A stretch of 64,000 bases of DNA from Gammaproteobacteria bacterium (GCA_024280395.1 JAJRQG010000150.1:2091-66090), one strand, 5' to 3'. Counted from the stretch's first letter, positions 4,957-61,270 are shown. Made by a program: numbers and translations. Notes: generated by a model from the sequence alone, not told the origin.

Positions 4957-5385
4957 CTATTTGTAATTTAGCTCCCTAAACCTTTCGCATATAGTTCTAA
5001 TATCGGGATTTTCTACAGCAAAGACAATATCATTCATCAGGCGATTTAATTCGTCAAAGTCCAATACTGACAGAACCTTACCCATGATTTCTTGGTCTGT
5101 TTGAGCATAAACTTTGGTTCCATTTTTTAAAGTTATTTCAACAGCAGCAGCGCCATATTCCCCTTCGATTTCAGGATTTTCTTTTTCATACATTTCTTGA
5201 TCTTGATCAAATAATTCATCGTAATAAGCACTGATATTTCCCTCTATTTCATCTTCTATATCTTCAGATAAATGCACTTCCCAGGCCGGTTCGTCGGCCA
5301 CCAACAAAGTTTCTATATCCAATGAACGGGCATATCTAGCAAATTTGTCTGCCAATACTTTATGAAAAAAAACATATTCAAGCAT
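4957..5385 (-). CDS. hypothetical acidic protein, about 142 aa from the internal ATG
   Basis: ORF track 4957..5409. The ATG at 5385 overlaps the stop of the upstream gene by 1 nt (TAATG). Very D/E-rich centre, no recognisable motif. Confidence 0.5.
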   Translation of the reverse strand: MLEYVFFHKVLADKFARYARSLDIETLLVADEPAWEVHLSEDIEDEIEGNISAYYDELFDQDQEMYEKENPEIEGEYGAAAVEITLKNGTKVYAQTDQEIMGKVLSVLDFDELNRLMNDIVFAVENPDIRTICERFRELNYK

Positions 5386-7344: not shown

Positions 7345-7722
7345 TTACCTAAAAAAACTAGACAATATCCCTGTAAAAATAGAAATAATCACATACCATT
7401 TTAAAATAGAAAACCAAATGGGCTTATTTGATTTCTTTAAGGGTGTCTTTTCGCTTTTTGTTATATTTTTAGTCTTGGTTCTTGATGTATGGATTGTGCC
7501 TGTTTCATGAGATAATTTTTGAGTTTTCAATTGTCTGAGTTTACTTAGCAAAGTGGTTAATTCTGGCGTGGAATCTAGTTTTCGAGTAATAGCATTCCCA
7601 CTTTGCTTTGTGTTGATGCTAAATTGATAGCCACATTGCACACATTTTCTCAGTTTTTCACCCTCTAATTCTGTCAAGGATGCATTGCATTTTTTACACT
7701 TTACTATTCTAAATTCACTCAC
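7345..7722 (-). CDS. zinc-ribbon, C-terminally membrane-anchored small protein
   Basis: CKKCNA...CVQCG ribbon, a K/S/T-rich linker and a C-terminal TM (WFSILKWYVIISIFTGILSSFF). GTG start overlaps the dusA stop by 8 nt. Confidence 0.5.
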   Translation of the reverse strand: MSEFRIVKCKKCNASLTELEGEKLRKCVQCGYQFSINTKQSGNAITRKLDSTPELTTLLSKLRQLKTQKLSHETGTIHTSRTKTKNITKSEKTPLKKSNKPIWFSILKWYVIISIFTGILSSFFR

Positions 7723-25784: not shown

Positions 25785-25829
25785 CCCATTGAATCAAATC
25801 TTGAACAATCTAGTGCCTAACTGATGCCA

Positions 25830-26465
25830 TTAGAAAGACAAGTCCAAGTCTTTAAATTCAACACCGCCAATGGCAATCACGGCAAAGATACAATCAGAAT
25901 CTTGACCTGAGACCAATGTATGAGAAGAGCCTTTTGAACTAACCGCAACTTCTCCTACCTGATAGGTGTTGCCATCACTGGTGGTCACCTCACCTTGGAT
26001 AATCAACATATATTCTTTGCCCATGTGTTCATGCTCTGTGATTTTTGTGCCTGGTTTTAAATAGATTAAGCCACAATGTGCATCAGCCATATCTCCACCT
26101 GCTTGGAAGTGGTTCAAATAGGCTCCTTCAATTTTTGCTTTTTCCCAAACGGGCAGAGTAAGGTCTTTGGTTGTTTCTAATATTTCTTCAATTGTTTGAA
26201 TAGGCAATTTAAAAAACTTGGCAATACGCTGGGTTAAACCGACAAACTTTTTAGTACCTGATTGTTCGATGTGTGCAAAAATTGATTGTTTCAATTGCTT
26301 TGAGGGCTCCAATTCTGGAGCAGCTTGCGCTATATTTTCAAGTTGACTTGAAATGGTTGCCAATTTAACATCAATGTCATGGGTCATTAGCATTTCTTGT
26401 AATTCCGTGTCATCATCCGGACATATATTTCCCATCAAGTATTCAACTAATTTACTTTCATTCAT
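25830..26465 (-). CDS. ChrR-like soluble anti-sigma factor with C-terminal cupin
   Basis: Start overlaps the stop of the ECF sigma gene by 1 nt. No TM. Cupin motif GTKITEHEHMGKEYMLIIQGEV. The N-terminal anti-sigma helix region lacks the usual H-x3-C-x2-C zinc site. Confidence 0.65.
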   Translation of the reverse strand: MNESKLVEYLMGNICPDDDTELQEMLMTHDIDVKLATISSQLENIAQAAPELEPSKQLKQSIFAHIEQSGTKKFVGLTQRIAKFFKLPIQTIEEILETTKDLTLPVWEKAKIEGAYLNHFQAGGDMADAHCGLIYLKPGTKITEHEHMGKEYMLIIQGEVTTSDGNTYQVGEVAVSSKGSSHTLVSGQDSDCIFAVIAIGGVEFKDLDLSF

Positions 26466-27031
26466 TATAAGCCTCTCTTGATGTGTGAAGACGATGATTG
26501 CATTTTTTTCATGGCTGTTAATAACCGTGTTTTTACAGTGCCCAAAGCAATACCATAATCTTGAGCAATTTCAGCGCAGGTAAAACCCTTAAAGTAAGAT
26601 AACTCAATCACCAATCGTTGATTTTCTGACAATGTATTCAATGCTTTATTTAAAAATTTATGGTCTGTATACGCATCAATACAATTTACGGATTGAATTT
26701 TTTCTTCATTGTTTTGTTTTTCTGCATATTTTCTTATGGTTTGTTGTTTTCGAATTCTGTCTAAACAACGGCTTCTTACCCTTAACAACAACCAACCCAA
26801 CACGGAAGCCTTATTAGAATCATAGGCCTTGGCTTTATTCCAAACTTCAATTATCACATCATGAATAATGTCTTCTGCATCTGACTTTGACTTAAGAATT
26901 TGCGTAGCCAAACCCAACATTTTTCCCACATTGCGCTCATACAATTGTTCTAAAGCGCCTTTGTCCTTGGCACATATTTTGACAATCAACTCATTGTCAT
27001 CTTCTTCAAAATTATTGTATTTTAAGGGCAT
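26465..27031 (-). CDS. RNA polymerase ECF-type sigma-70 factor
   Basis: Region 2 (..AEDIIHDVIIEVWNKA..) and region 4 HTH (..FTCAEIAQDYGIALGTVKTRL..), 188 aa. Confidence 0.9.
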   Translation of the reverse strand: MPLKYNNFEEDDNELIVKICAKDKGALEQLYERNVGKMLGLATQILKSKSDAEDIIHDVIIEVWNKAKAYDSNKASVLGWLLLRVRSRCLDRIRKQQTIRKYAEKQNNEEKIQSVNCIDAYTDHKFLNKALNTLSENQRLVIELSYFKGFTCAEIAQDYGIALGTVKTRLLTAMKKMQSSSSHIKRGL

Positions 27032-27226
27032 ATTGCAATTTTTTGTGCGATTCTATGGTTCAATTATTAACTACGGTTAATTAAAGCACAAGCTAATCAT
27101 TAATTAATCACCATTGATTCACAAAATCTCTGTGCGCATAAATCTTTCGAAAAAAAATTGAAAAAATTTAAAGCCAAACTTTTGTTTCATGCGTATTGAT
27201 GGTACTTAACAACAAAAGGCAACAAC

Positions 27227-28651
27227 ATGAAATTAAACAAACTACTCATAACTGGCTTACTAAGCTTCTCAATAAACACAGGCTTTGCAGCCGATCACAA
27301 CGAAGCACCACAAGTAAGAATTGATCCAGCTGCAGATATCAATGACCTATACACATTCATCAACCCAAATGATTCAGATGAATTGATATTGGCCGCTACC
27401 TATGTTCCATTTGCAGGCTCAGGGTCGAAATTTTCTGATGCGGTAGAGTACAATTTTAACATCAGTAATGATGCAAACAATTACAAAGTGCTTACTTGTA
27501 CTTTTGATGTGGATGACATGGTCAGTTGTGCTTTCGATGGTGGAACACCAGTTACAGGGAATATTGGAGATACCATTCAAGGAGATTCCATGAGGGTCTA
27601 TACTGGGCTGCGTGATGATCCATTTTTCTTTGATGCTGTTGCATTTGGTCAAACGGTTGCCACCTTACAACCACAGTTCACCAACCCTGGTTCCAATACT
27701 TTCTTGGGCTTAGACACATTGGCAATCGTCATTGGAATTGATAAATCTGTACTCACCAATAACAATGCTGACCCAACACTCAGTATCTATTCAACGACCA
27801 ATCGTTTAAGTGGCGAATCATTAAATGGCAGCATTACCGGTTCATTTTATAATACGGATCAATCCGGTCATGGCTTTATGGTTGAAATTTTGCCCAACAA
27901 TCGGGTATTTGCAACCTGGTATGTGTTTGACAACCAAGGAAACCCATTGTGGCTCGTTGGAACTGGAACTTATCAGGGATTAACCATTAATCTGCCATTG
28001 CAACGATTAGATGGTGGCATGTTTCCGCCAAATTTTAATGCCGATGATGTGGTTAGAACCGATGTAGGTACATTGAGTTTTGATTTTACGGGTTGTAACA
28101 ATGCCAATGTTGATTTTCAATCCAGCAATGAAGCCGACCTTAATTCAACTTCTTTACAAGTGTCTCGACTGACTTCAATCGAAGGAAATCCCTGTGGAAT
28201 TGTAAAAAATGGTCAGATTGATCGCATGGGCAGGCCAGCAATCAATACCGCATTGATTAACTTGTTGAATGATACGGGATTAAAAGACCAGTACAACAGC
28301 GCACAAGACCCAAGCACATGGGCAGGTTTGTTTCAAGCTGAAATATCGGCAAACTTGGCCGCATTAGATACATTAGATGGTGTAACAGGGAATGCATTAT
28401 TGGATGCCGATACTTTGGCTTCAGTTCTTGTCAATGACGTGTTACTTATCAATACCAGTATTGCCACTTGTGATGCTTATTTGGCAGTTGAGTTGAATGT
28501 TGCAGGCCAATGTGGTGGTAGAACTCTTGCTCGTGATGTGATTGACGATACTCTGGGAGCAGTTGTAGGTCCTGGTGTCATCGATGGTGTGGACAACGAC
28601 AGTGCTTTCTTACAAGAATTTCCTTTCTTGGGATTGCCCAATTCACAATAA
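27227..28651 (+). CDS. secreted DUF4331 family protein with an inserted ~130-aa domain
   Basis: Signal peptide, then ADHNEAPQVRIDPAADINDLYTF (DUF4331-like start) and later IDRMGRPAINTALI. Extra segment at aa ~195-324. Confidence 0.7.
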   Translation: MKLNKLLITGLLSFSINTGFAADHNEAPQVRIDPAADINDLYTFINPNDSDELILAATYVPFAGSGSKFSDAVEYNFNISNDANNYKVLTCTFDVDDMVSCAFDGGTPVTGNIGDTIQGDSMRVYTGLRDDPFFFDAVAFGQTVATLQPQFTNPGSNTFLGLDTLAIVIGIDKSVLTNNNADPTLSIYSTTNRLSGESLNGSITGSFYNTDQSGHGFMVEILPNNRVFATWYVFDNQGNPLWLVGTGTYQGLTINLPLQRLDGGMFPPNFNADDVVRTDVGTLSFDFTGCNNANVDFQSSNEADLNSTSLQVSRLTSIEGNPCGIVKNGQIDRMGRPAINTALINLLNDTGLKDQYNSAQDPSTWAGLFQAEISANLAALDTLDGVTGNALLDADTLASVLVNDVLLINTSIATCDAYLAVELNVAGQCGGRTLARDVIDDTLGAVVGPGVIDGVDNDSAFLQEFPFLGLPNSQ

Positions 28652-28721
28652 TACTTTAACTCAATCTAAATGTGCCTATTTTAAGTGATAGGCGCATTTT
28701 AATAACTTTTTGGAGAATATT

Positions 28722-30008
28722 ATGAACAAAAAAACAGTCCTTAACTTTATTGTTTTATTCCTGTATTTCGGTTTGATTATAGGTGTGGTTTTACAGCTTA
28801 TTTCATGCAAAAGCACTGGAAACAACCTCATCACAGAGAATTCACAAAAGGAATCACAAGAACTTCAATCTGTTAAAAACTGGATCTCAAAACAATGGCC
28901 AGGGAATGCAGCAACATATAAAACCACAAACAGCTCTGTTTATTTGGCCAATTTAAATTCATCCATTGAGGTTTTTAACAGGCTGTACAACAATCAAAAC
29001 AAAACCAGTTATGGTGCACAACTTGCATCAAAACTGTATTTAAGATATAGAATTTTGGGCGATTTTAACGATGCCACAAAAGCATTAGAAACCATACAAA
29101 CCGCTAGCCAATTGTCACATACTGATGCAAATATTCATTATACCCTGGCAATCATTCAATCAGGTTTTCATCAATTCAAATCAGCGCTAAGTTCACTAGA
29201 AACAGCAATGGCAATGGGCGGTAATAACAAGCAAATTGCATTGTTGAAAAATGAAATCAGATACTCACTTGGACTGTATCAGCCTTATGATTTCATCATC
29301 AAAGAGCCAGGAACCAATAACTTAACCAAGGCGAAATATGCTTTATTGAACAACCATTTTGAACAGGCCAGTCATTTCTACAAAAACTCTATGGATAACT
29401 ACAATGACACCGATCCTTTTAAACTCTCATGGTTGCAACTACAACAAGGCATTGCTTTTTTACGTTATGGCGATCCAAAGACGGCCAATTTATTTTTCCA
29501 AGCTGCACACAATCGCTTTCCTGAATATTATCTGGTTACCGAACACTTGGCAGAAACTGAATTTCTTTTGGGTCATTTAGAAAGGGCAAAGAACCTTTAT
29601 CAATTGGTTATTCAACAAACCAACAATCCAGAATTTTATGCACAATTGGCAAAAATAGAATCTTTATTGGGCAATCACCAATCTAGTAGTAAAGCCCTAT
29701 TAATGGCCGAAACTGAATTCGATCAGCTCATTGAACTCTATCCCAAAGCATTGGGTGATCATGCCATCCAATTTTACATCGACAACCAACACTTCTCAAC
29801 AGCATTGAATTTGGCCAAAATAAATTTAGACAACAGAAAAAACATAGAAAGTTATGAGTTGCTCATCAAAACTGCATTGGCCAATAACGATGTCAAGCTG
29901 GCCTGTGATACCTATATGCTGGCACTGAATTACAAAGTCAGGCCTTTAGAATTCATTCACCTTTCTAATGAGTTATCTTGCGAAAACAGTCCAACCAACA
30001 CCCAATGA
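28722..30008 (+). CDS. TPR-repeat lipoprotein
   Basis: GGAG 7 nt before the ATG at 28722. Lipobox LQLISC. The remainder is helical TPR-like repeats. Confidence 0.65.
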   Translation: MNKKTVLNFIVLFLYFGLIIGVVLQLISCKSTGNNLITENSQKESQELQSVKNWISKQWPGNAATYKTTNSSVYLANLNSSIEVFNRLYNNQNKTSYGAQLASKLYLRYRILGDFNDATKALETIQTASQLSHTDANIHYTLAIIQSGFHQFKSALSSLETAMAMGGNNKQIALLKNEIRYSLGLYQPYDFIIKEPGTNNLTKAKYALLNNHFEQASHFYKNSMDNYNDTDPFKLSWLQLQQGIAFLRYGDPKTANLFFQAAHNRFPEYYLVTEHLAETEFLLGHLERAKNLYQLVIQQTNNPEFYAQLAKIESLLGNHQSSSKALLMAETEFDQLIELYPKALGDHAIQFYIDNQHFSTALNLAKINLDNRKNIESYELLIKTALANNDVKLACDTYMLALNYKVRPLEFIHLSNELSCENSPTNTQ

Positions 30009-31771
30009 ACAGGCACTTTGAAGGTATTGTCCTGATAAAATATTTTCACTGATTTGGTTTTAGGAGAAATAGCAAACATAGGTATCACTTGTGATCCATA
30101 TTTTTCCAAGTACATTTTGAAGGTGAATTCTTCGGTCATCAAGGTGGATTTGACCACTCCACCATTGGCCAAAATACTAGCCAACTGTCCATAGGTTTTA
30201 CCACCAAATAAAATTCTACCGCGAAAATCGATCGAACTGAGATGCTTTTCTGAATCCTTATTTTTGTCCTCTGAGGGCTTTAAAGTGTAGATATTCTGTT
30301 TACCAAATTCTGCTGCGTATTTTTTTGCTGCCAAGGTGTTTAAATGTCGATTCATTGACATCCCCAATAAGTGGCCTATGCCAATCAAATGTAAATGTTG
30401 ATCGGCGTGTTTTGAAACAGGGTTGCCATAGTAGGTTTTGAATCCTTGCATCCGCGCTTGTTTAATTTGTTGCCAATAACTGTCAGCAATCACAATATTA
30501 ACCCCTTCTTTCTGTAAAACCAAGGCAATGGCTTGTACCACTGGGTTTGCCCCAACAATCAGCATGCCCAAAGCTTCGGGTTCTGCCACACCCAATGCTT
30601 TAGCCAGTGGTCGGGCTGTTGCGCTTTGAAAAACAACGGTGGTGATGATAATGATAAATGTCAGCGATACCAACAAATCGGCATTGGGATAATTAATCGC
30701 TTCCAATTTAATGGCGAAAAGTGCTGAAACAGCTGCAGCCACAATACCACGCGGGGCAATCCATGACACCATCACCTTTTCTTGCCACTTTAGATTTGAG
30801 CCCAAAGTTGATGCCCACACTTTGATCGGTCGAGCAAAAAACTGTATCATTAAAAATATACCAATTGAACCCCAACCCAAGGATTGGATTTGTTCAAAAT
30901 CAATGCGCGATGCCAAGATAATAAACAAACCCGATATCAACAAGATACTCAACGACTCTTTAAAGTTTAAGATTTCTTCAATGTGCACACCTTTCATATT
31001 CGCCAACCATATTCCCATAAGGGTTACAGCCAACAAACCCGATTCATGCTCCAAGTGATTGGACAACCCAAATACGCCAAACACCAAAGTCAGGGTGAAA
31101 ATATTGTGCAAATACTCAGGCAACAAATGGTATTTAAGAATAAGGCCCAAAGCCTGACCGGCCACGATACCCAACAAAGAACCAATCAAAATTAACTTGG
31201 CAAATACAATAAATACATGTGAAAATTCATTGCTGCCATTTTGACTGGCGATCATAAATGTAAACACCAATACTGCCAGCAATGCCCCAATGGGATCAAT
31301 GATAATTCCCTCCCAGCGTAAAATATTTGAGATTTTACTGTTGACCCGCACCGTGCGCAACATGGGTACAATCACGGTGGGCCCTGTAACTACTACTAAT
31401 GCCCCAAATAGAAATGACATTTGCCAAGCAAACCCAATCATATAATGGGTAGAAACCGCGATGATAATCCAACAAATAATGGTACCACCCGAAATCAAAC
31501 GTCGAATCACTTGTTGCAAACCTTTGATTTCCTGAAAACTCAAGGTCAACGCCCCTTCAAACAAAATCACAGAAACAGCCAATGAAACCATAGGAAACAA
31601 CATATCCCCGAATACTTCATCTGGGTTTAAATAGCCCGTGATTGGCCCCACCAAAAAACCCAATAATAGCAGGAATAAAATAGATGGAAGCTTCACCCAC
31701 CACGAAAACCACTGTGCCAGAGAGCCCAAGACGCCTATGACGGCCAGCTTTATTAGGATTTCTTCTTGCAT
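29957..31771 (-). CDS. CPA1-family Na+/H+ (cation:proton) antiporter with C-terminal RCK/TrkA-N-like domain
   Basis: About 12 TM segments and a C-terminal Rossmann-like GMLIVGANPVVQAIALVLQKEGVNIVIAD. Confidence 0.85.
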   Translation of the reverse strand: MQEEILIKLAVIGVLGSLAQWFSWWVKLPSILFLLLLGFLVGPITGYLNPDEVFGDMLFPMVSLAVSVILFEGALTLSFQEIKGLQQVIRRLISGGTIICWIIIAVSTHYMIGFAWQMSFLFGALVVVTGPTVIVPMLRTVRVNSKISNILRWEGIIIDPIGALLAVLVFTFMIASQNGSNEFSHVFIVFAKLILIGSLLGIVAGQALGLILKYHLLPEYLHNIFTLTLVFGVFGLSNHLEHESGLLAVTLMGIWLANMKGVHIEEILNFKESLSILLISGLFIILASRIDFEQIQSLGWGSIGIFLMIQFFARPIKVWASTLGSNLKWQEKVMVSWIAPRGIVAAAVSALFAIKLEAINYPNADLLVSLTFIIIITTVVFQSATARPLAKALGVAEPEALGMLIVGANPVVQAIALVLQKEGVNIVIADSYWQQIKQARMQGFKTYYGNPVSKHADQHLHLIGIGHLLGMSMNRHLNTLAAKKYAAEFGKQNIYTLKPSEDKNKDSEKHLSSIDFRGRILFGGKTYGQLASILANGGVVKSTLMTEEFTFKMYLEKYGSQVIPMFAISPKTKSVKIFYQDNTFKVPVHWVLVGLFSQDNSLER

Positions 31772-31780
31772 TTACTTGGA

Positions 31781-32563: not shown

Positions 32564-32798
32564 AATGCATCACATAATATAGTTTAAAAAATCATTATAC
32601 ATGATAACGTCAACATCTCAAATTTAGATAAAATGACTATATTGGAAGTATGTCCAATTCCTTGGACTTGCCATAACATTGCTTCTTGAGCTCTTTACAA
32701 TCAAACAACAACTCTTTTTCTTTGCTTTTAATTTACATGTCACATTTTCCCAGTATTTCACGAATAGAAAGTTAACATACCATTATTAGAGCAAAACC

Positions 32799-34172
32799 AT
32801 GAAAAAAATTCATTTATTATTTAGCTTAGGAGCTTGTCCGAGAATAGAAAACATACTCCAGAAAATCTGGATTTGGCCAGATTTTTCACTAATTCTCGTT
32901 AAATATGCCTATATTCTCCTCAAATTAGTGAAAAACCTGACTCAAACCAGCTTTCCTTCGCTACGATTCCTATTCTCGGACAAGCTCCTAATCATTACTA
33001 TTGCCGTTACTTTAAATACCAAAGCCATTGATTTTGTTGTTGACGTCAACGATGACGTTTTCCTTTCAGGGGATATTAACCCTGGAGATGGACTTTGCCA
33101 GACACCATTTACATTAGAATGTAGCCTACGCGCAGCAATAGTAGAAACCAATGCACTGCCTGGATCTCATCGAATAATCTTGAGCAATACTAACTATGTG
33201 CTAAATCAACCACTTCTAATCACCAACAGTGATGTACAAATTATTGGGACTGGCATGAATCAGACAACAATAGATGGAAACATGAATGATCAAATATTCA
33301 ACATGTTTGAATCAAATGTTACTGTTAAAGAATTAAGCCTTATTAATGGTAAAGCAACAGTGGCGAATGGAGCAGGTGGCGCTATATATGCCAATGGAGG
33401 TTCTCTACCTACGGCATCTCTAACAATAGAACGCGTTAAATTTAGAAATAATAGTGCCAATACGGGCGGCGCACTTCGTACATTAGATATAACTGTCAAT
33501 ATTAACACCAGTATTTTTGAAAACAACTCATTGGAAGACTTGGGGATATCTAGCTTGTACGGTTCAGCCATTTCTGCTCGTCGCAGCAACATGAACATTT
33601 ATGATTCTAGCATTTATTTAAATAGCAACGGATCCAATACAATATATAGTACTAAGGGCAATATATTTATGCAAAATACCACTGTAAGTGCCAACAGTAG
33701 CATTGGACTCAGAACTGAGAACTCAACATCAAGAATAAACTTCAGTACTTTCAACAATAACCCAACAAACTTTTCACGATTTAGCTTTGATGGCAGCCAG
33801 CAAATGTATATTGGTCATTCAATCATACAAAATGCAACAACTCTAAATTGCGGTTCTATAGATAAACCCATTTCCTTGGGGCACAATGTTAGTGATGATG
33901 TTTCATGCGAACTAATAGATTCTACTGATTTGGAATCAACAGATGCACAACTCGCAGGCCTAACAGACAATGGAGGCCTAGCGCTAACTCACGAGCCAGC
34001 CCTGACAAGTCCGGCTATTGACAATGTTCCCATTGTAGACTGTCTTGAGATTGACGGCTCCACATCTTTATCCCATGATCAACGAGGCTTAACTCGTCCC
34101 TTTGGTTCGGCGTGTGATAGTGGGTCGATAGAATACATGTCTGCTCTCATATTTGAAAATGGTTTCGAATGA
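32799..34172 (+). CDS. secreted right-handed beta-helix protein with CSLREA-type N-terminal motif; signal peptide interrupted in frame by a MITE
   Basis: LECSLRAAIVETNALPG motif; degenerate ~23-aa N-rich repeats; ends ...ALIFENGFE. Codons 11-64 derive from the inserted element listed next. Confidence 0.7.
   Translation: MKKIHLLFSLGACPRIENILQKIWIWPDFSLILVKYAYILLKLVKNLTQTSFPSLRFLFSDKLLIITIAVTLNTKAIDFVVDVNDDVFLSGDINPGDGLCQTPFTLECSLRAAIVETNALPGSHRIILSNTNYVLNQPLLITNSDVQIIGTGMNQTTIDGNMNDQIFNMFESNVTVKELSLINGKATVANGAGGAIYANGGSLPTASLTIERVKFRNNSANTGGALRTLDITVNINTSIFENNSLEDLGISSLYGSAISARRSNMNIYDSSIYLNSNGSNTIYSTKGNIFMQNTTVSANSSIGLRTENSTSRINFSTFNNNPTNFSRFSFDGSQQMYIGHSIIQNATTLNCGSIDKPISLGHNVSDDVSCELIDSTDLESTDAQLAGLTDNGGLALTHEPALTSPAIDNVPIVDCLEIDGSTSLSHDQRGLTRPFGSACDSGSIEYMSALIFENGFE
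32829..32988. mobile_element. 160-bp MITE with perfect terminal inverted repeats and TA target duplication
   Basis: The 22-nt ttaggagcttgtccgagaatag (32826-32847) is the exact reverse complement of ctattctcggacaagctcctaa (32970-32991). TA is on both sides (32827-28 and 32989-90). No ORF of its own. Confidence 0.75.
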
Positions 34173-34185
34173 GATAAGATAGAAA

Positions 34186-34248: not shown

Positions 34249-36519
34249 TCACTCAAAACCGTTTTTAAACAGTATATCAGTAATTGTACATTCTAAAGGT
34301 ACATCGAAAGCCTCTGTTTCATCACCTAAAGTATTGCTGTTTCCAGAACTGGCACTCAACCCTAGACCTCTTTTTGCAAAGCCTTTCCAAATAGCACATT
34401 GATTCACGCTTGCATTATTCGCTACATCAGCTGCTAAAATCGCATCCCTTCCTTGAATAAAACTGGGAGAACAAGATTGTAATTTAAGACCATCAATAAC
34501 CAACTGCATGGCAATATTGTTACCCCCAGTTCCATGATAAATATCTGAATCAAAACCATAAACTTCAATTAAATTCCAATATACCTCCCATAACATTTCA
34601 GCCCAAACCGACCCCACACCATGTGGAATGGAAACCGATTGTATGTCAGCAAATGTATGTAAATTTATTGTCATATCCGTGGTATAAGGATATTCACGAA
34701 TACCAGAGGTATTGTTGCCAGCATAGGTACCCATCGCTCTTAAAGTTGTAGCAGTCTCACTACTTTGAGCGGTCAAAACCAAGGCGAAAAAGTCACTCCA
34801 ACCTTCTCCCATTTGTTCATCATTACCTAAACAACTGGCATTTGAGGGTCCTCCTGTTAATCGATTCGAAATGCCATGACCATATTCATGTATAATAATA
34901 CCGTTATCAAGATCACCGTCTCTATTTTTTTTCAATACAGCCATTGTAATATCCACACTATTAACCAGTTCGGCCCTGATTGTATTGCCATTGGTCTGAC
35001 CAATGAATATTGAAGGGATGGTTACTGACCCTCCATTTACACCCCCTCCCATACTCAGCAATCCATCGCCTTGATTATTAATTACCATAGCAGCAATAGC
35101 TCCTGCTTGTTGTGCATTCAATACTTTAAGACCAAATTCACAACCTCCTCTATCAATGAGTGCAATCTCCCCAGCTGTAAATCCAATCAGTGGTTGGCAT
35201 GCGTCTGAAAATGATCCTCCATTTATATTATCATTGTCATTTACTTGCTCTAAAACTCCAGTAATGCCGACCGAATCTAATGTACCTCCAAAAGAAGCGC
35301 CATTTATCATATAGGATCCAGCAATTGATGCTGGTGTATTAACCAGTAGCCCAGGTGCCGCTAAAAACGTGAACATCTGCATCCTTGGTTGAAACCCATC
35401 TGGTGGTGTAGAAAAATTGGCATTATTGTTACCTGAACCATCTTGGGCATCCGCATTAACTGCATCATTTCCCGAACCACCATTTCCATAATTGTTTGAT
35501 TGGAAATTACCTGCAACTTCATCAAAACCATACTGATACAAAATATCATGAATAACATTATTCCAATAAAACAAATTAACAATGCCAACTTCAAGATTTG
35601 TTCCTTCAGTGGGTTGTAGATTTTCATCAAACGCAAAATCAAAATTTAACAATGCACCTCCATCAGGTCTAAACCCGCCTGTATTATTTGCATCCAAATC
35701 GTCTTGTGCATTAACATTGTTTCCCCGCGTATCAGTAAATTCTGCACCAGCGCTTCCATCGGTGTCATGCCATCCAAATGGTGATGCCACGGGATCTGCA
35801 ACATTACTAACCAATTGATGGCTCGACCCATTTGCTGTAGGGCTTTCATAGGGTTGAGGGAACACCCGGTAGTCCTCGTTGACTGTCCAATTATCCGAAG
35901 CTATCACATCTCCATTTCCAGCATCAACACGTATATTCCACCAAGCATCTGGTAATTGAATATGCATATCCCAAGCCAATATTAGTTGGTTTTTTTCATT
36001 CAATTCATAGACAAGTTTAACTGGAATTTCTTTACCAGACAATGATGAATCAATAAACACGGCTGCTTGATTAGATGATGGACCATTTGACCTCAATAAA
36101 TGTACGCTTCGATTCATTGAATTAAGGCTATTCAAGGCTTTATGAATCGCATCTATGACTTTAATTTTTGGTCTGACTTGCAATCCTTTCGCTGAAACAT
36201 TAGGAATGAAATTATTGTTTATAAGAAATATTGAATTGTCTTTATTCAAGTGTATTTGCAAATCATGATTGTGAACTTCTATACCTGAGTAGAACTGTCT
36301 CATGTAGATATGTGTTAATCCATTATTTTTGCTGATATAACTGTTCTGAATAACAGCATCATTAATATCATTTTCTGTAATCCCTAACTCACTCAAATGA
36401 TCCAACAAATAGTTTCTAGCTATGTTGTTTTTTTCATTTAATTGAGTTTGTAATTCTGAAGAAAATGCCGAAAAAATAAAAAACATTTGGATAAATAGCA
36501 CAAAATATTTTAAACGCAT
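34249..36519 (-). CDS. secreted M36 (fungalysin-type) zinc metalloprotease with FTP propeptide and PA domain
   Basis: Signal peptide. HEYGHGISNRLTGG HEXXH motif and ..GEGWSDFF... Ends ...DILFKNGFE. Confidence 0.85.
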   Translation of the reverse strand: MRLKYFVLFIQMFFIFSAFSSELQTQLNEKNNIARNYLLDHLSELGITENDINDAVIQNSYISKNNGLTHIYMRQFYSGIEVHNHDLQIHLNKDNSIFLINNNFIPNVSAKGLQVRPKIKVIDAIHKALNSLNSMNRSVHLLRSNGPSSNQAAVFIDSSLSGKEIPVKLVYELNEKNQLILAWDMHIQLPDAWWNIRVDAGNGDVIASDNWTVNEDYRVFPQPYESPTANGSSHQLVSNVADPVASPFGWHDTDGSAGAEFTDTRGNNVNAQDDLDANNTGGFRPDGGALLNFDFAFDENLQPTEGTNLEVGIVNLFYWNNVIHDILYQYGFDEVAGNFQSNNYGNGGSGNDAVNADAQDGSGNNNANFSTPPDGFQPRMQMFTFLAAPGLLVNTPASIAGSYMINGASFGGTLDSVGITGVLEQVNDNDNINGGSFSDACQPLIGFTAGEIALIDRGGCEFGLKVLNAQQAGAIAAMVINNQGDGLLSMGGGVNGGSVTIPSIFIGQTNGNTIRAELVNSVDITMAVLKKNRDGDLDNGIIIHEYGHGISNRLTGGPSNASCLGNDEQMGEGWSDFFALVLTAQSSETATTLRAMGTYAGNNTSGIREYPYTTDMTINLHTFADIQSVSIPHGVGSVWAEMLWEVYWNLIEVYGFDSDIYHGTGGNNIAMQLVIDGLKLQSCSPSFIQGRDAILAADVANNASVNQCAIWKGFAKRGLGLSASSGNSNTLGDETEAFDVPLECTITDILFKNGFE

Positions 36520-58486: not shown

Positions 58487-61270
58487 ATGTATATTCTTAA
58501 ACGATTCATCGTTTGTTTTTGTGCCATTTTTTCTATTAATGCACTTTCTGGTCCAGGCATATGGACATCGTACGGACCCGATGGCGGGCCTGTCTATGAT
58601 ATCGTAACTGACCCCACTACTGCCGGCGTTTTTTACTCTGCAACCAGAGCTGGCGTTTATAAAACCACTACCGGTGGCAACAATTGGGTTAAAATCAACA
58701 ACGGAATAACCGTTAATTCTATCAAGTCATTGGCTCACCACCAAAGTTCAACAAACATAGTCTATGCTGGCGGACTTGCTTCGGTTTTTAAAACCACGGA
58801 TGGTGGATTGAATTGGGTTAATTCTAGTACTGGATTACCTATAGATTCTTTAATAATCAACCTTTCGTTGGCACCTCTATCCAGTGATACCATATACATT
58901 TCAACTCAACCTAATGGTGTCTATAAAACGATCAATTCAGGAGTAACATGGTCGCCAGCTAATGCTGGACTTACGGCCATAGTCAATGCTGTTCGAGTTA
59001 GCCCTACAAATACAAACCGTGTCTATGCAGCAGTATCAGCCTCTACAACATCTACTCAAGCTGGCTTATTCGAAAGCACCAACGGTGGCTTATCATGGAC
59101 TAATGTCAGTTCTGGCATTGAGGCGCCCTATAACTCTGGCGACGGCGTCACCAATATTCAGTTTACAGGAATTGTCGGTGAAATGTATATCACCACATAT
59201 TCAGGTGTATACAAAAGCGATGATAATGGGCTGACCTGGCAATTCCAAACAGGTCCTAGTGGCAATAATATCGCCGTTAATCCAAGCAACAATAATGAAG
59301 TTATCATTAGTGGTTCAATCGGATTATGGGTTACTACCAATGGCGGTACTAGCTGGACACAAACACTCAGTGGTTTTCAAGGCAATGCTACCGAGGTGGC
59401 CTCTTCAACAATTGTCACCTATGACCCATTTGATCCAACATTTATTTTAGCGGGCTCCGCCGCAAATGGTGTTTACTTGAAAGCTGGTTCGTTTCCTGCT
59501 TGGGTGCCTGTCACAGATGGAATGAATGCGCAGACTATACGAGGATTAGCCATACATCCTGGCGCAAGCAATCGAATCTATGCCGCTGTAGGTGATGTTT
59601 TTTCCCCCAGTTATTTTAACTTCATTAGTACAGATTCAGGAGTCACATGGAATGAATCAAGTATGGGTTTAACTGGATTAAATTTTCGCGACATTGAAGT
59701 TGATCCATTTACAGCCACAACCATTGCTACCACCAGTATTTATGCGGTGGGTCGTGACACACCAGCAACCACCTTTGCTGGCACACTATCAAATGCCGAT
59801 GGTGGCATCTACAAAAGCAACGATGGTGGCAACACCTGGTCAACAATAGATATAGGTATTCCCTTATCACCATTTTCGCCTAATTTAAGCTATTTTGGCA
59901 CAGTTAGAGATATATCCTTAGACTTAAATAGCAGCATAGCTGGAGGACCTGTCCAAACATTATTTGTAGCAGGTTCGGGAAGGTTTCAGAGTGATGGTAC
60001 TGGGGGTTTTACAAAAATAGCGGCACGACTATACAAGTCTATTGATGCTGGGGCTACGTGGAACCCATCCGATACGGGCATCGGTGCTCCGACCACTAGC
60101 AGGTTTCCATATCCTGCTGCCGTCAAAGTTGTGATCGACCCCTCAGATTCGTCTATTATGTATGCAGCAACTTTTCTCTTTGGTTATGATTCTTCAGCCA
60201 CTGCTCCAACAATAAAAAATGGTATTTGGAAATCCACAGACGCAGGGGCAACTTGGACACATGCCAGCATCGGCATACCTACTGTTTCAGGCATTGGGAC
60301 CAGTGCTTTTAACGTTCTTTCTTTGGTAATTGATCCGATTACAACAAACCGATTATATGCATCTGTTCACGATTTAAACACTTTTGAATCACAAATTTAT
60401 AAAAGTGAAGATTCAGGAACAAGTTGGTCATTAGCCAACACAGGCATTGCGACATCCGATGTACGAGATATAATGGTTGATTCCACTGGCGTTGTCTATG
60501 CAGCAGCCGCAGGAAATTCAGGCAACCCTGGTGGAGTATATCAATCTACAGATTTTGGCACCTCTTGGCAATCAATAAGTATTGGTTTAGACAGCACAGT
60601 TAGTGCATTACAATTAAAAATTGATGAATCAGGTGTTAACCCAATACTATATGCTGGAACCACTCAATCCGTTCATTCTTTTGAGATCTTACCAGATGCC
60701 GATACCGATGGCGTTTCTAACACTACAGAATCAAGCTCTCCTAATGCTGGTGATGCTAACAATGACGGAATATCAGATGCCAATCAAAACAACGTTTCTT
60801 CTTTGCCTATGAAGGAGATTGATAATAATGTATATAATAAAATTTTCACAATAGGACTGTCAAATTTCGCCACCATCGAAGTAACACCAATAACAGGAAA
60901 CTGTAACAAACTGGAGGATGTTCAGTCTCTGAGCAATGATGATGTACCCAATGATGCCCCTCGATCCTTTGCTTATGGAATTTTCAGGTTTGAGATTGTC
61001 GATTGCCAAAACGCAGAAGTTACCCTTACATTCCATGCTGCGACTGATTTTATTGACACCGCTTGGTCGATGAGAATTTTCGCACCCGTACAAGCCGGTT
61101 CTACTGAATTTATATGGCAAAATTTTCCAACCACGATTTTGAACAATCAATGGACGATAAACCTCACCGATGGCCAACTAGGAGACATTCGCCCAAATAA
61201 TGGTCGCATCCTGTTCCAAGGAGGGGTTGGGTTTTTTAATGAAAACGTATTCGTCAATGGTTTTGAGTGA
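58487..61270 (+). CDS. secreted Asp-box/sortilin-like double beta-propeller protein with TSP3-like Ca-binding repeats
   Basis: Signal peptide MYILKRFIVCFCAIFSINALSG (GGAG 9 nt upstream; alternative ATG at 58472). 12 motifs of type T/S-x-D/N-G/S-G-x-x-W. DADTDGVSN..GDANNDGISDANQNN. Ends ..NVFVNGFE. Confidence 0.85.
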   Translation: MYILKRFIVCFCAIFSINALSGPGIWTSYGPDGGPVYDIVTDPTTAGVFYSATRAGVYKTTTGGNNWVKINNGITVNSIKSLAHHQSSTNIVYAGGLASVFKTTDGGLNWVNSSTGLPIDSLIINLSLAPLSSDTIYISTQPNGVYKTINSGVTWSPANAGLTAIVNAVRVSPTNTNRVYAAVSASTTSTQAGLFESTNGGLSWTNVSSGIEAPYNSGDGVTNIQFTGIVGEMYITTYSGVYKSDDNGLTWQFQTGPSGNNIAVNPSNNNEVIISGSIGLWVTTNGGTSWTQTLSGFQGNATEVASSTIVTYDPFDPTFILAGSAANGVYLKAGSFPAWVPVTDGMNAQTIRGLAIHPGASNRIYAAVGDVFSPSYFNFISTDSGVTWNESSMGLTGLNFRDIEVDPFTATTIATTSIYAVGRDTPATTFAGTLSNADGGIYKSNDGGNTWSTIDIGIPLSPFSPNLSYFGTVRDISLDLNSSIAGGPVQTLFVAGSGRFQSDGTGGFTKIAARLYKSIDAGATWNPSDTGIGAPTTSRFPYPAAVKVVIDPSDSSIMYAATFLFGYDSSATAPTIKNGIWKSTDAGATWTHASIGIPTVSGIGTSAFNVLSLVIDPITTNRLYASVHDLNTFESQIYKSEDSGTSWSLANTGIATSDVRDIMVDSTGVVYAAAAGNSGNPGGVYQSTDFGTSWQSISIGLDSTVSALQLKIDESGVNPILYAGTTQSVHSFEILPDADTDGVSNTTESSSPNAGDANNDGISDANQNNVSSLPMKEIDNNVYNKIFTIGLSNFATIEVTPITGNCNKLEDVQSLSNDDVPNDAPRSFAYGIFRFEIVDCQNAEVTLTFHAATDFIDTAWSMRIFAPVQAGSTEFIWQNFPTTILNNQWTINLTDGQLGDIRPNNGRILFQGGVGFFNENVFVNGFE

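Follow-up and report, generated by a model that had tools for sequence, protein, structure and literature searches.

A miniature inverted-repeat transposable element in frame within the signal-peptide codons of a beta-helix protein gene

What becomes of a secreted protein when a transposable element enters the codons of its signal peptide and the reading frame stays open? This question is raised by an open reading frame (ORF) of 457 amino acids at 32799..34172 (+) in a 64,000-nucleotide stretch of Gammaproteobacteria bacterium DNA (GCA_024280395.1, JAJRQG010000150.1:2091-66090), which is called the window in the following and from whose first letter all positions are counted. The window has a G+C content of approximately 38% and looks like part of a Pseudomonadota MAG (metagenome-assembled genome). 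The ORF encodes a beta-helix protein and is interrupted near its start by a 160-bp palindromic segment. An earlier reading, made from the sequence alone (the sequence-only reading), took this segment for a miniature inverted-repeat transposable element (MITE) of IS630/Tc1-mariner descent and proposed that its insertion inactivates export, re-targets the protein as a lipoprotein or is very recent. Here we show that the segment is a non-autonomous transposable element inserted at a TA inside codon 10, that the insertion cut an original 22-residue Sec signal in the middle of its hydrophobic core, and that it predates the divergence of the three known copies of the gene. As a whole, the explanation that we favour, with reasonable but limited confidence, is that of an old and tolerated in-frame MITE in a gene that is functional and whose product would still be exported via a rebuilt signal.

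The element and its insertion site

The perfect inverted repeats, the TA on both sides and the 160-bp length were confirmed by reading the sequence and by a repeat search. The string TTAGGAGCTTGTCCGAGAATAG at 32826-32847 returns as its exact reverse complement at 32970-32991, and the inverted arms extend inward to 69 nt with 80% complementarity. The 19-mer core of the repeat occurs exactly twice in the 64-kb window, once per strand, where 0.01 occurrences are expected by chance, and the palindromic segment folds as RNA with -65 kcal/mol (z = -9.6). The element proper covers 32829-32988 and lies between the left (32827..32828) and the right (32989..32990) TA of the duplicated target. Its left terminal inverted repeat, GGAGCTTGTCCGAGAATAG, is found at 32829..32847 (+) and the right one, the exact reverse complement of the left, at 32970..32988 (-). 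The length of 22 nt first given for the repeat holds for the window copy, in which it is perfect, but not for the family: the outermost T:A pair is peculiar to the window, and since both orthologues described below have C at 32826 the family repeat is 19 nt plus TA.

Together with one TA the element adds 162 nt, i.e., 54 codons (codons 11-64, GACPRIEN…FSDKLL), to the ORF, which runs through it without a stop. The 160-bp body has no transposase-sized ORF, and the frame of the host gene is the only one of the six that is open through the element.

A dispersed family with identical ends

Further copies were searched for with the 19-mer in one genome per species. The 19-mer was listed at at least 120 loci, often on several contigs of the same metagenome-assembled genome (MAG; e.g., Desulfocapsa JAIPEF01 and Alcanivoracaceae CAZQMH01). 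Among the matches listed the hosts are Desulfocapsa and other Desulfobulbales, Thiotrichaceae, Alcanivoracaceae, Sedimenticola, Methylophaga and Kangiella, and further Polaribacter, Fermentibacteria, Neomarinimicrobiota and others. A partner repeat follows 120-165 bp away in most loci, with size classes of 141 bp and 160-161 bp, and in a BLAST of the window against the family loci many full-length matches of 75-87% identity were obtained, with ends at 32827 and 32990. Among the matches listed, the terminal repeats are nearly invariant over 169 ends, and 51 of 75 copies are flanked by TA on both sides, the remainder being mostly one transition away. The base outside the TA is C/G in about 90% of the ends, which gives CTA-GGAG…CTCC-TAG as the general arrangement. 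Relative to the genes beside them, copies point either way (about 30 co-oriented and 18 opposed in a hand tally of the context table, a bias that is not significant), and one copy is visible in the 64 kb of the window's own genome. The same element with the same ends is present at more than 100 unrelated loci, and this dispersal, together with the perfect repeats, the TA flanks, the small size and the missing transposase gene, bears out the assignment as a MITE.

The identical 19-nt end is common to MAGs of Desulfobacterota, Gammaproteobacteria, Bacteroidota, Fermentibacterota, Marinimicrobia and Myxococcota (loci L001-L120), mostly from marine sediment, vent or symbiont samples. Identical ends across phyla imply that the element has spread horizontally on a very wide scale, or that some contigs were binned in error. 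Many of the contigs break about 33 nt into the element, as is typical of a high-copy repeat that disrupts assembly. A full-length copy of 76.5% identity was also found at positions 4001-4165 of L123 (NZ_CP034782.1), the 328-kb conjugative plasmid pMPC6-328K of Pseudomonas sp. MPC6 from Antarctica, where it occupies a spacer without annotation next to a LuxR-type regulator; such a plasmid is a possible vehicle between hosts.

Rfam 15 gave no match in the window and only sub-threshold matches to generic hairpins (miRNA precursors), and a literature search for the terminal repeat string found no paper containing it. With neither an Rfam family nor a paper that holds the repeat sequence, the family is not yet catalogued.

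Target duplication and parent transposase

IS630 itself has a strong CTAG target context. A TA target duplication has been described for IS630 and ISY100 (PMC2170065), and MITEPsy1 offers an IS5/IS427-like comparison for a 4-bp CTAG duplication (PMC3189936). At a CTAG target, a TA duplication with GGAGC ends and a CTAG duplication with GAGC ends give the identical string, so only non-CTAG sites can discriminate between the two models. About eight such sites, including this locus ((C/T)TA…TAA), agree with TA, and a duplication of 4 bp suits a single degenerate copy (L092); this preference of about 8 to 1 is our own reading of the flank listing and not a scripted count. A formal test of the duplication models on partner ends was not significant.

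Pairs of elements that stand end to end, exactly 2 nt apart, were observed at four loci (L023:871-910, L038:109-148, L039:6922-6961 and L049:6117-6156). The 2-nt gap reads TA, as expected if the second copy entered the flanking TA of the first. Two minimal remnants, L037:5097-5125 and L107:~7640-7666, consist of one 19-nt repeat followed by G(A/C)(G/T)CC-TAG and keep the last 5-6 nt of the second end; they resemble products of internal deletion or scars left by excision.

The search for the parent insertion sequence (IS) that had been proposed was carried out and remained without result. No IS630-type transposase with these ends was found in about 700 kb of loci, in plasmids or in viral contigs. 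A search for a second terminal repeat 0.7-3 kb from unpaired ends revealed no autonomous element; BLAST against plasmids gave the one intergenic MITE copy on pMPC6-328K and nothing else; the scan of viral contigs for the element gave zero matches; and when 545 ORFs of the loci were clustered for recurrent transposases, the clusters tested were housekeeping genes. The only transposase adjoining any copy among the matches listed is found at L088:2496-4157, where a 500-aa protein of the IS1182/IS5 type (DDE_Tnp_1_6, DUF772) comes after a truncated copy that retains the left repeat and about 65 nt. It was rejected as the parent because the second matching repeat is absent, and probably represents an unrelated IS inserted into the MITE. 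The family shares with IS630/Tc1-mariner elements the TA duplication, short terminal inverted repeats and the CTAG context, and the 2 nt between its adjacent copies are read as one shared TA. Descent from IS630 is likely but unproven: the TA duplication and the preference for CTAG fit the proposal, whereas the parent was not found.

The interrupted signal peptide and its gene

The part of the gene upstream of the element (32799..32826, +) comprises codons 1-9 and the first base of codon 10 and encodes the start, the n-region MKK and the first half of the hydrophobic (h) region, IHLLFS-L. Its ATG at 32799 is conserved in both orthologues. When 32799..32826 is joined to 32989 onward, a 22-residue Sec-type signal is obtained: conceptual excision of the 162 nt gives MKKIHLLFSLIITIAVTLNTKAIDF, that is, MKKIHLLFSLIITIAVTLNTKA followed by cleavage before IDF. 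By inspection, this reconstructed signal (MKK / IHLLFSLIITIAVTL / NTKA, then I) agrees with what is expected for signal peptidase I (SPI), namely a basic n-region, an h-region of 10-15 residues and small residues at -3/-1.

The architecture of homologues leads to the same result. In 17 homologues the signal peptide is followed by xFxV(D/N)S…PGDGLC…C(T/S)LR(A/E)A, and the residue position of this motif ranges from 46 to 69. In the present protein the CSLREA motif stands at residue 108, i.e., 54 + 54, and the homologues are without the 54-residue segment. The predicted cleavage between NTKA and IDFVVD is placed exactly as in the homologues, just before the xFxV(D/N) motif. In-frame insertion into signal-peptide codons, as first proposed, is thus supported by the restored signal as well as by the homologues.

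The mature protein (33027..34172, +) contains CSLRAA at codons 108-113 and a choice-of-anchor Q domain at 382-446, and ends with …FENGFE. NF041518 is matched with 49 bits in NCBIfam (cut-off 25). The AlphaFold model shows a beta-helix with a pLDDT of about 90 after residue 77 and low-confidence helices over residues 1-76, and in Foldseek the closest structure is Rhombotarget A (9cdv, TM 0.60), followed by pectate lyases. These results agree with the secreted beta-helix identity assigned before. Close relatives are only two 457-aa proteins of the same 90% cluster; all others show at most 27% identity, and the distant homologues are CSLREA / choice-of-anchor Q / beta-helix proteins. Like Rhombotarget A and other CSLREA proteins, the host protein has the C-S-L-R-A-A motif, NF041518 and the beta-helix; unlike Rhombotarget A it lacks a GlyGly-CTERM.

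Age of the insertion and probable exchange of the allele

Two orthologues were available, L121 (ENA ERZ23495891, P0033) and L122 (GCA_054016655.1, P0032), so that with the window three gene copies could be compared. Both have the insertion at the identical site and behind the same TerC gene, free of indels and stops, and both carry the element itself, not merely the same residues without repeats in the DNA. No frameshift or stop occurs in the 457 codons of any of the three copies. In the mature part the pairwise synonymous divergence (dS) is 0.16-0.29 and the ratio of non-synonymous to synonymous divergence (dN/dS) 0.14-0.20 in the three comparisons. The insertion was therefore already present before the three copies diverged, which does not agree with a very recent event. 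The low dN/dS after the insertion indicates that the gene is still used and that the allele is functional; an inactivated export as a dead end does not fit a mature part under purifying selection in all three copies.

The flanks have a different history. Between the window and L121/L122 the epimerase gene has a dS of 0.76-0.87 and the TerC gene a dS above 1.5. The homology of the window with both orthologues ends at the stop codon, with different genes downstream, and the segment that is about 90% identical to L122 begins at about 32702. Since the dS of the gene is far below that of its flanks, the gene and the MITE within it are far younger than the region around them, and the MITE-bearing allele was probably exchanged between diverged lineages by recombination. 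The shared segment as a whole (32702-34174) is far less diverged than the flanks. We also observed that epimerase and TerC genes are adjacent in L121 and L122, while the window has about 6 kb extra between them (~25800-31780) with five ORFs, including one for a 604-aa membrane protein (29957..31771).

Translation has to begin at 32799 and run through the element. A GTG within the element (32928, codon 44) reads GTA in L121, and it is only at codon 153 that another start is shared by all three copies. The GTG was rejected as an alternative start for this reason, and by eye no Shine-Dalgarno motif precedes it.

An open frame is common in the family

The sequence-only reading had regarded 54 open codons as unexpected by chance, which turned out to be overstated. 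Among the matches listed there are 78 complete family copies, with no open frame in 41, a single one in 27, two in 9 and three in 1 (about 0.6 per copy). Of nine further 160-nt copies inspected, three (L047, L108 and L092) are likewise open in the frame of the host gene (GACPRI…FSDKLL). Retention of the open frame was likewise discarded as a sign of selection, as the chance of no new stop given the 13 substitutions seen in the insert is 0.51. With an open frame common in the family, the rare feature is the location: this locus is the only true in-gene copy among the 78, and the elements of L059 and L116 lie just upstream of the true starts (5'-UTR cases). A search for other proteins with the MITE-encoded peptide gave one 48-aa ORF; it missed the query's own protein and is therefore uninformative.

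The present N-terminus and export

The surviving half of the signal is encoded at 32982..33026 (+) and consists of K62, the h-region LLIITIAVTL and the c-region NTKA, with a predicted cleavage after A76. LLIITIAVTL is the most hydrophobic segment (mean Kyte-Doolittle 2.95) and is identical in the three orthologues, which also all keep T-x-A at -3/-1. The K-L-L in front of IITIAVTL is encoded by the right terminal repeat (…F-S-D-K-L-L). The leader has charges of +9/-3 in the window and +11/-3 or +11/-4 in the orthologues (net +6 to +8).

On this basis we propose that the insertion left, and partly rebuilt, a usable signal. One lysine and two leucines from the right terminal repeat, placed directly before the remaining IITIAVTL-NTKA and the I that follows, would form with them a new n-h-c unit (K / LLIITIAVTL / NTKA). 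The basic leader of 62 residues would stay on the cytoplasmic side, as in signal-anchor or extended signal peptides, and SPI would cut after A76 and release the normal mature protein from I77. That the rebuilt unit still engages Sec and is cut there, the leader being left behind, seems to us slightly more probable than its failure to do so. A three-helix membrane topology of the new N-terminus was also considered and discarded, because in the orthologues R and D have entered the middle stretch and because the first one spans no more than 8-9 residues.

Several observations weigh against this explanation. Neither an empty-site allele nor an uninserted orthologue was found in metagenome contigs or the protein database: the pattern of the excised junction had zero matches in metagenome contigs, a protein-guided search of such contigs and the protein database gave no uninserted orthologue, and the empty site that had been expected in related strains was not found, both orthologues being MITE-bearing. 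The insertion is accordingly deduced from family membership and homologue architecture and was not seen directly. In addition, variation in the insert is only about a third of that at neutral sites and lacks codon periodicity, which is not what a tolerated passenger would lead one to expect. The export step is inferred from the sequence, and a second, partly hydrophobic stretch in the 62-residue leader (ILQKIWIWPDFSLILVKYAYILL in the window copy) might hinder targeting.

Slow change of the insert and the family hairpin

In the three gene copies 13 of the 160 sites of the insert are variable (8%), with no gaps, compared with 38 of 139 four-fold sites of the same gene (27%; P ~1e-9) and with 19 of 78 sites (24%) plus many gaps in the upstream spacer. 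Substitutions in the insert are distributed 6:4:3 over the codon positions, against 36:18:77 in the mature part (Fisher p = 0.018); the slowing is the same for synonymous as for non-synonymous sites, with no excess at third positions.

In the family the hairpin is maintained by compensatory changes. In an alignment of 35 family copies (A2) 92.8% of the cells are paired and 41 of 58 pairs show double changes; 0 of 500 shuffles reach the observed values, and sliding the partner columns lowers pairing to 34-54%. On the strand antisense to the ORF (- strand) 187 G·U cells stand against 23 A·C cells. The minimum free energy (MFE, in kcal/mol) is -92 for the antisense and -63 for the sense strand, and the antisense fold is better by about 20 kcal/mol in nearly every family copy. 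This strand-specific covariation suggests selection on a single-stranded form, either RNA or DNA.

Candidates for the cause of the slow change are a constraint on the mRNA hairpin, conversion from other copies, and a mixed constraint on peptide and RNA. Among the alternatives, the one that survives best is co-option, in which the mRNA hairpin or the encoded peptide now serves the gene, e.g., through mRNA stability, translation rate or as a regulatory N-terminal extension. This would be compatible with continued export. It gains from the low variability without indels, from the equal slowing of both classes of sites and from the covarying hairpin of the family. At the locus, seven substitutions fall on paired positions, and five of these replace a Watson-Crick pair by G·U on the strand of the mRNA; among the three orthologues the sense MFE remains between -58 and -63, with the antisense fold weakening from -92 to -71. 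However, random substitutions in simulations give a similar sense MFE often enough (P = 0.05-0.25, not significant), compensatory double changes are absent among the three orthologues, and Watson-Crick pairs drop from 55 to 51 to 48. An exceptional conservation of the right arm was rejected, as equally long invariant runs occur elsewhere in the gene, and gene conversion from other MITE copies could slow the divergence, too. We therefore regard co-option as possible but doubtful. Somewhat less credence still is given to a full domestication, in which the insert would be under nucleotide-level selection, the hairpin and/or the 62-residue leader would control expression or export, the allele would have spread by recombination among genomes in which the flanking genes have reached synonymous saturation, and the family would be a cross-phylum mobile element with a strand-specific structure.

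Lipoprotein, lost export or no insertion

In the lipoprotein explanation, MKKIHLLFSL-GAC would be a lipoprotein signal, with a cut by signal peptidase II before Cys13 and a lipid anchor. The L-G-A-C is lipobox-like and identical in the three orthologues. However, G-A-C is the translation of the terminal repeat GGA-GCT-TGT in this frame in every family copy, and its conservation therefore mirrors that of the repeat and not selection. The PROSITE rule PS51257 places the cysteine at 15-35 and allows no charged residue in the six positions before the box. L-G-A-C fails it in all three orthologues: the cysteine is at 13, K3 (R5 in the orthologues) falls into the stretch that has to be uncharged, and the apolar run is only 7-8 residues long. 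In addition, the downstream h-region and T-x-A, needless for a lipoprotein, are perfectly kept. The re-targeting put forward in the sequence-only reading is thus improbable.

Equally improbable is a loss of export, with the signal destroyed and the product cytoplasmic, unused or decaying. The hydrophobic core is indeed split, and its first half, IHLLFSLGA, is short. Such a loss is hard to reconcile with the purifying selection on the mature part after the insertion, with the 457 codons intact in every copy, with the extracytoplasmic nature of the cysteine-rich CSLREA / choice-of-anchor class, and with the apparent exchange of the allele between diverged genomes.

That no insertion took place at all, the 54 residues and the palindrome being ancestral or a conserved RNA structure or the start lying inside or after the palindrome, is very unlikely: the missing empty site, the presence of the segment in every known gene copy and the RNA-like covariation would fit, but the same ends recur at over 100 unrelated loci from several phyla, frequently as multiple copies in one genome and in both orientations relative to nearby genes, no Rfam family exceeds the threshold, homologues lack the segment with an offset of exactly 54 residues, and the in-element GTG, unconserved and without a visible Shine-Dalgarno motif, leaves codon 153 as the next conserved start.

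Other features of the locus

Upstream of the gene, a weak sigma-70-like match (ATAACA-17-TACAAT, 9 of 12 positions) lies at 32673..32701 (+). Such sites are no commoner there than in shuffled sequence, and it is a possible promoter only.

The C-terminus x-N-G-F-E-COOH is found on 3 of 47 long ORFs of the window, at 34158-34169 (+), 34252-34263 (-) and 61256-61267 (+). These belong to the beta-helix protein (…IFENGFE), the adjacent M36 metallopeptidase (…LFKNGFE) and a 932-aa sortilin/BNR-repeat protein (…VFVNGFE), and in L121 a different neighbour gene (5202-5213, -) ends with …IFNNGFE. In one of the proteins the tail comes after a choice-of-anchor Q domain, and it stands in place of the sortase-type tails that the best-matching M36 families have. 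NGFE may be a C-terminal tag, short and not yet described, that serves sorting or secretion.

Comparison with known elements and significance

A palindrome of about 150 bp that stands in frame in a working gene and adds a peptide to its product is known from Rickettsia palindromic elements (RPEs), ERIC, QMITE1 and Anabaena MITEs, and the same is seen here. In difference to the RPEs, to which no sequence relation is expected, in-gene copies are rare in the present family (1 of 78 among the matches listed). In-frame fusions by intragenic MITEs have been called 'not unusual' in a 2024 review (PMC10969869), so the present locus is another case of a kind already known. What sets it apart is the unusual site, the evidence for long retention and for lateral spread, and the uncatalogued, widely distributed family.

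With Correia elements of Neisseria and with ERIC, which measure 100-160 bp, form a hairpin over the whole element with one strand folding better and, in the case of Correia, have TA flanks, the present family shares the size, the TA flanks (Correia), the whole-element hairpin and the strand-biased folding. Sequence and hosts differ, the family is not in Rfam, and here the same 19-nt end is found across phyla.

To our knowledge, an insertion in the hydrophobic core of a signal peptide has not been described, and a literature search for a MITE at such a site found nothing. Extended signal peptides and signal-anchors, e.g., the extended signal peptide region (ESPR) of autotransporters, have a long basic N-terminal extension before a normal h-region and SPI site. 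The extension here is transposon-made and has no sequence relation to ESPR; the likeness would lie in the proposed working mode.

A MITE fixed in the core of a signal peptide, in a gene that is still under selection, is a natural experiment on how much lengthening a Sec signal tolerates: its n-region has gone from 3 residues to 62, and its h-region would be rebuilt from the codons of a transposon end, which would show that such an end can supply usable signal-peptide residues. The uncatalogued family, with its identical 19-nt ends across marine phyla and a hairpin kept in a strand-specific manner, bears on how such elements move and whether they act as RNA.

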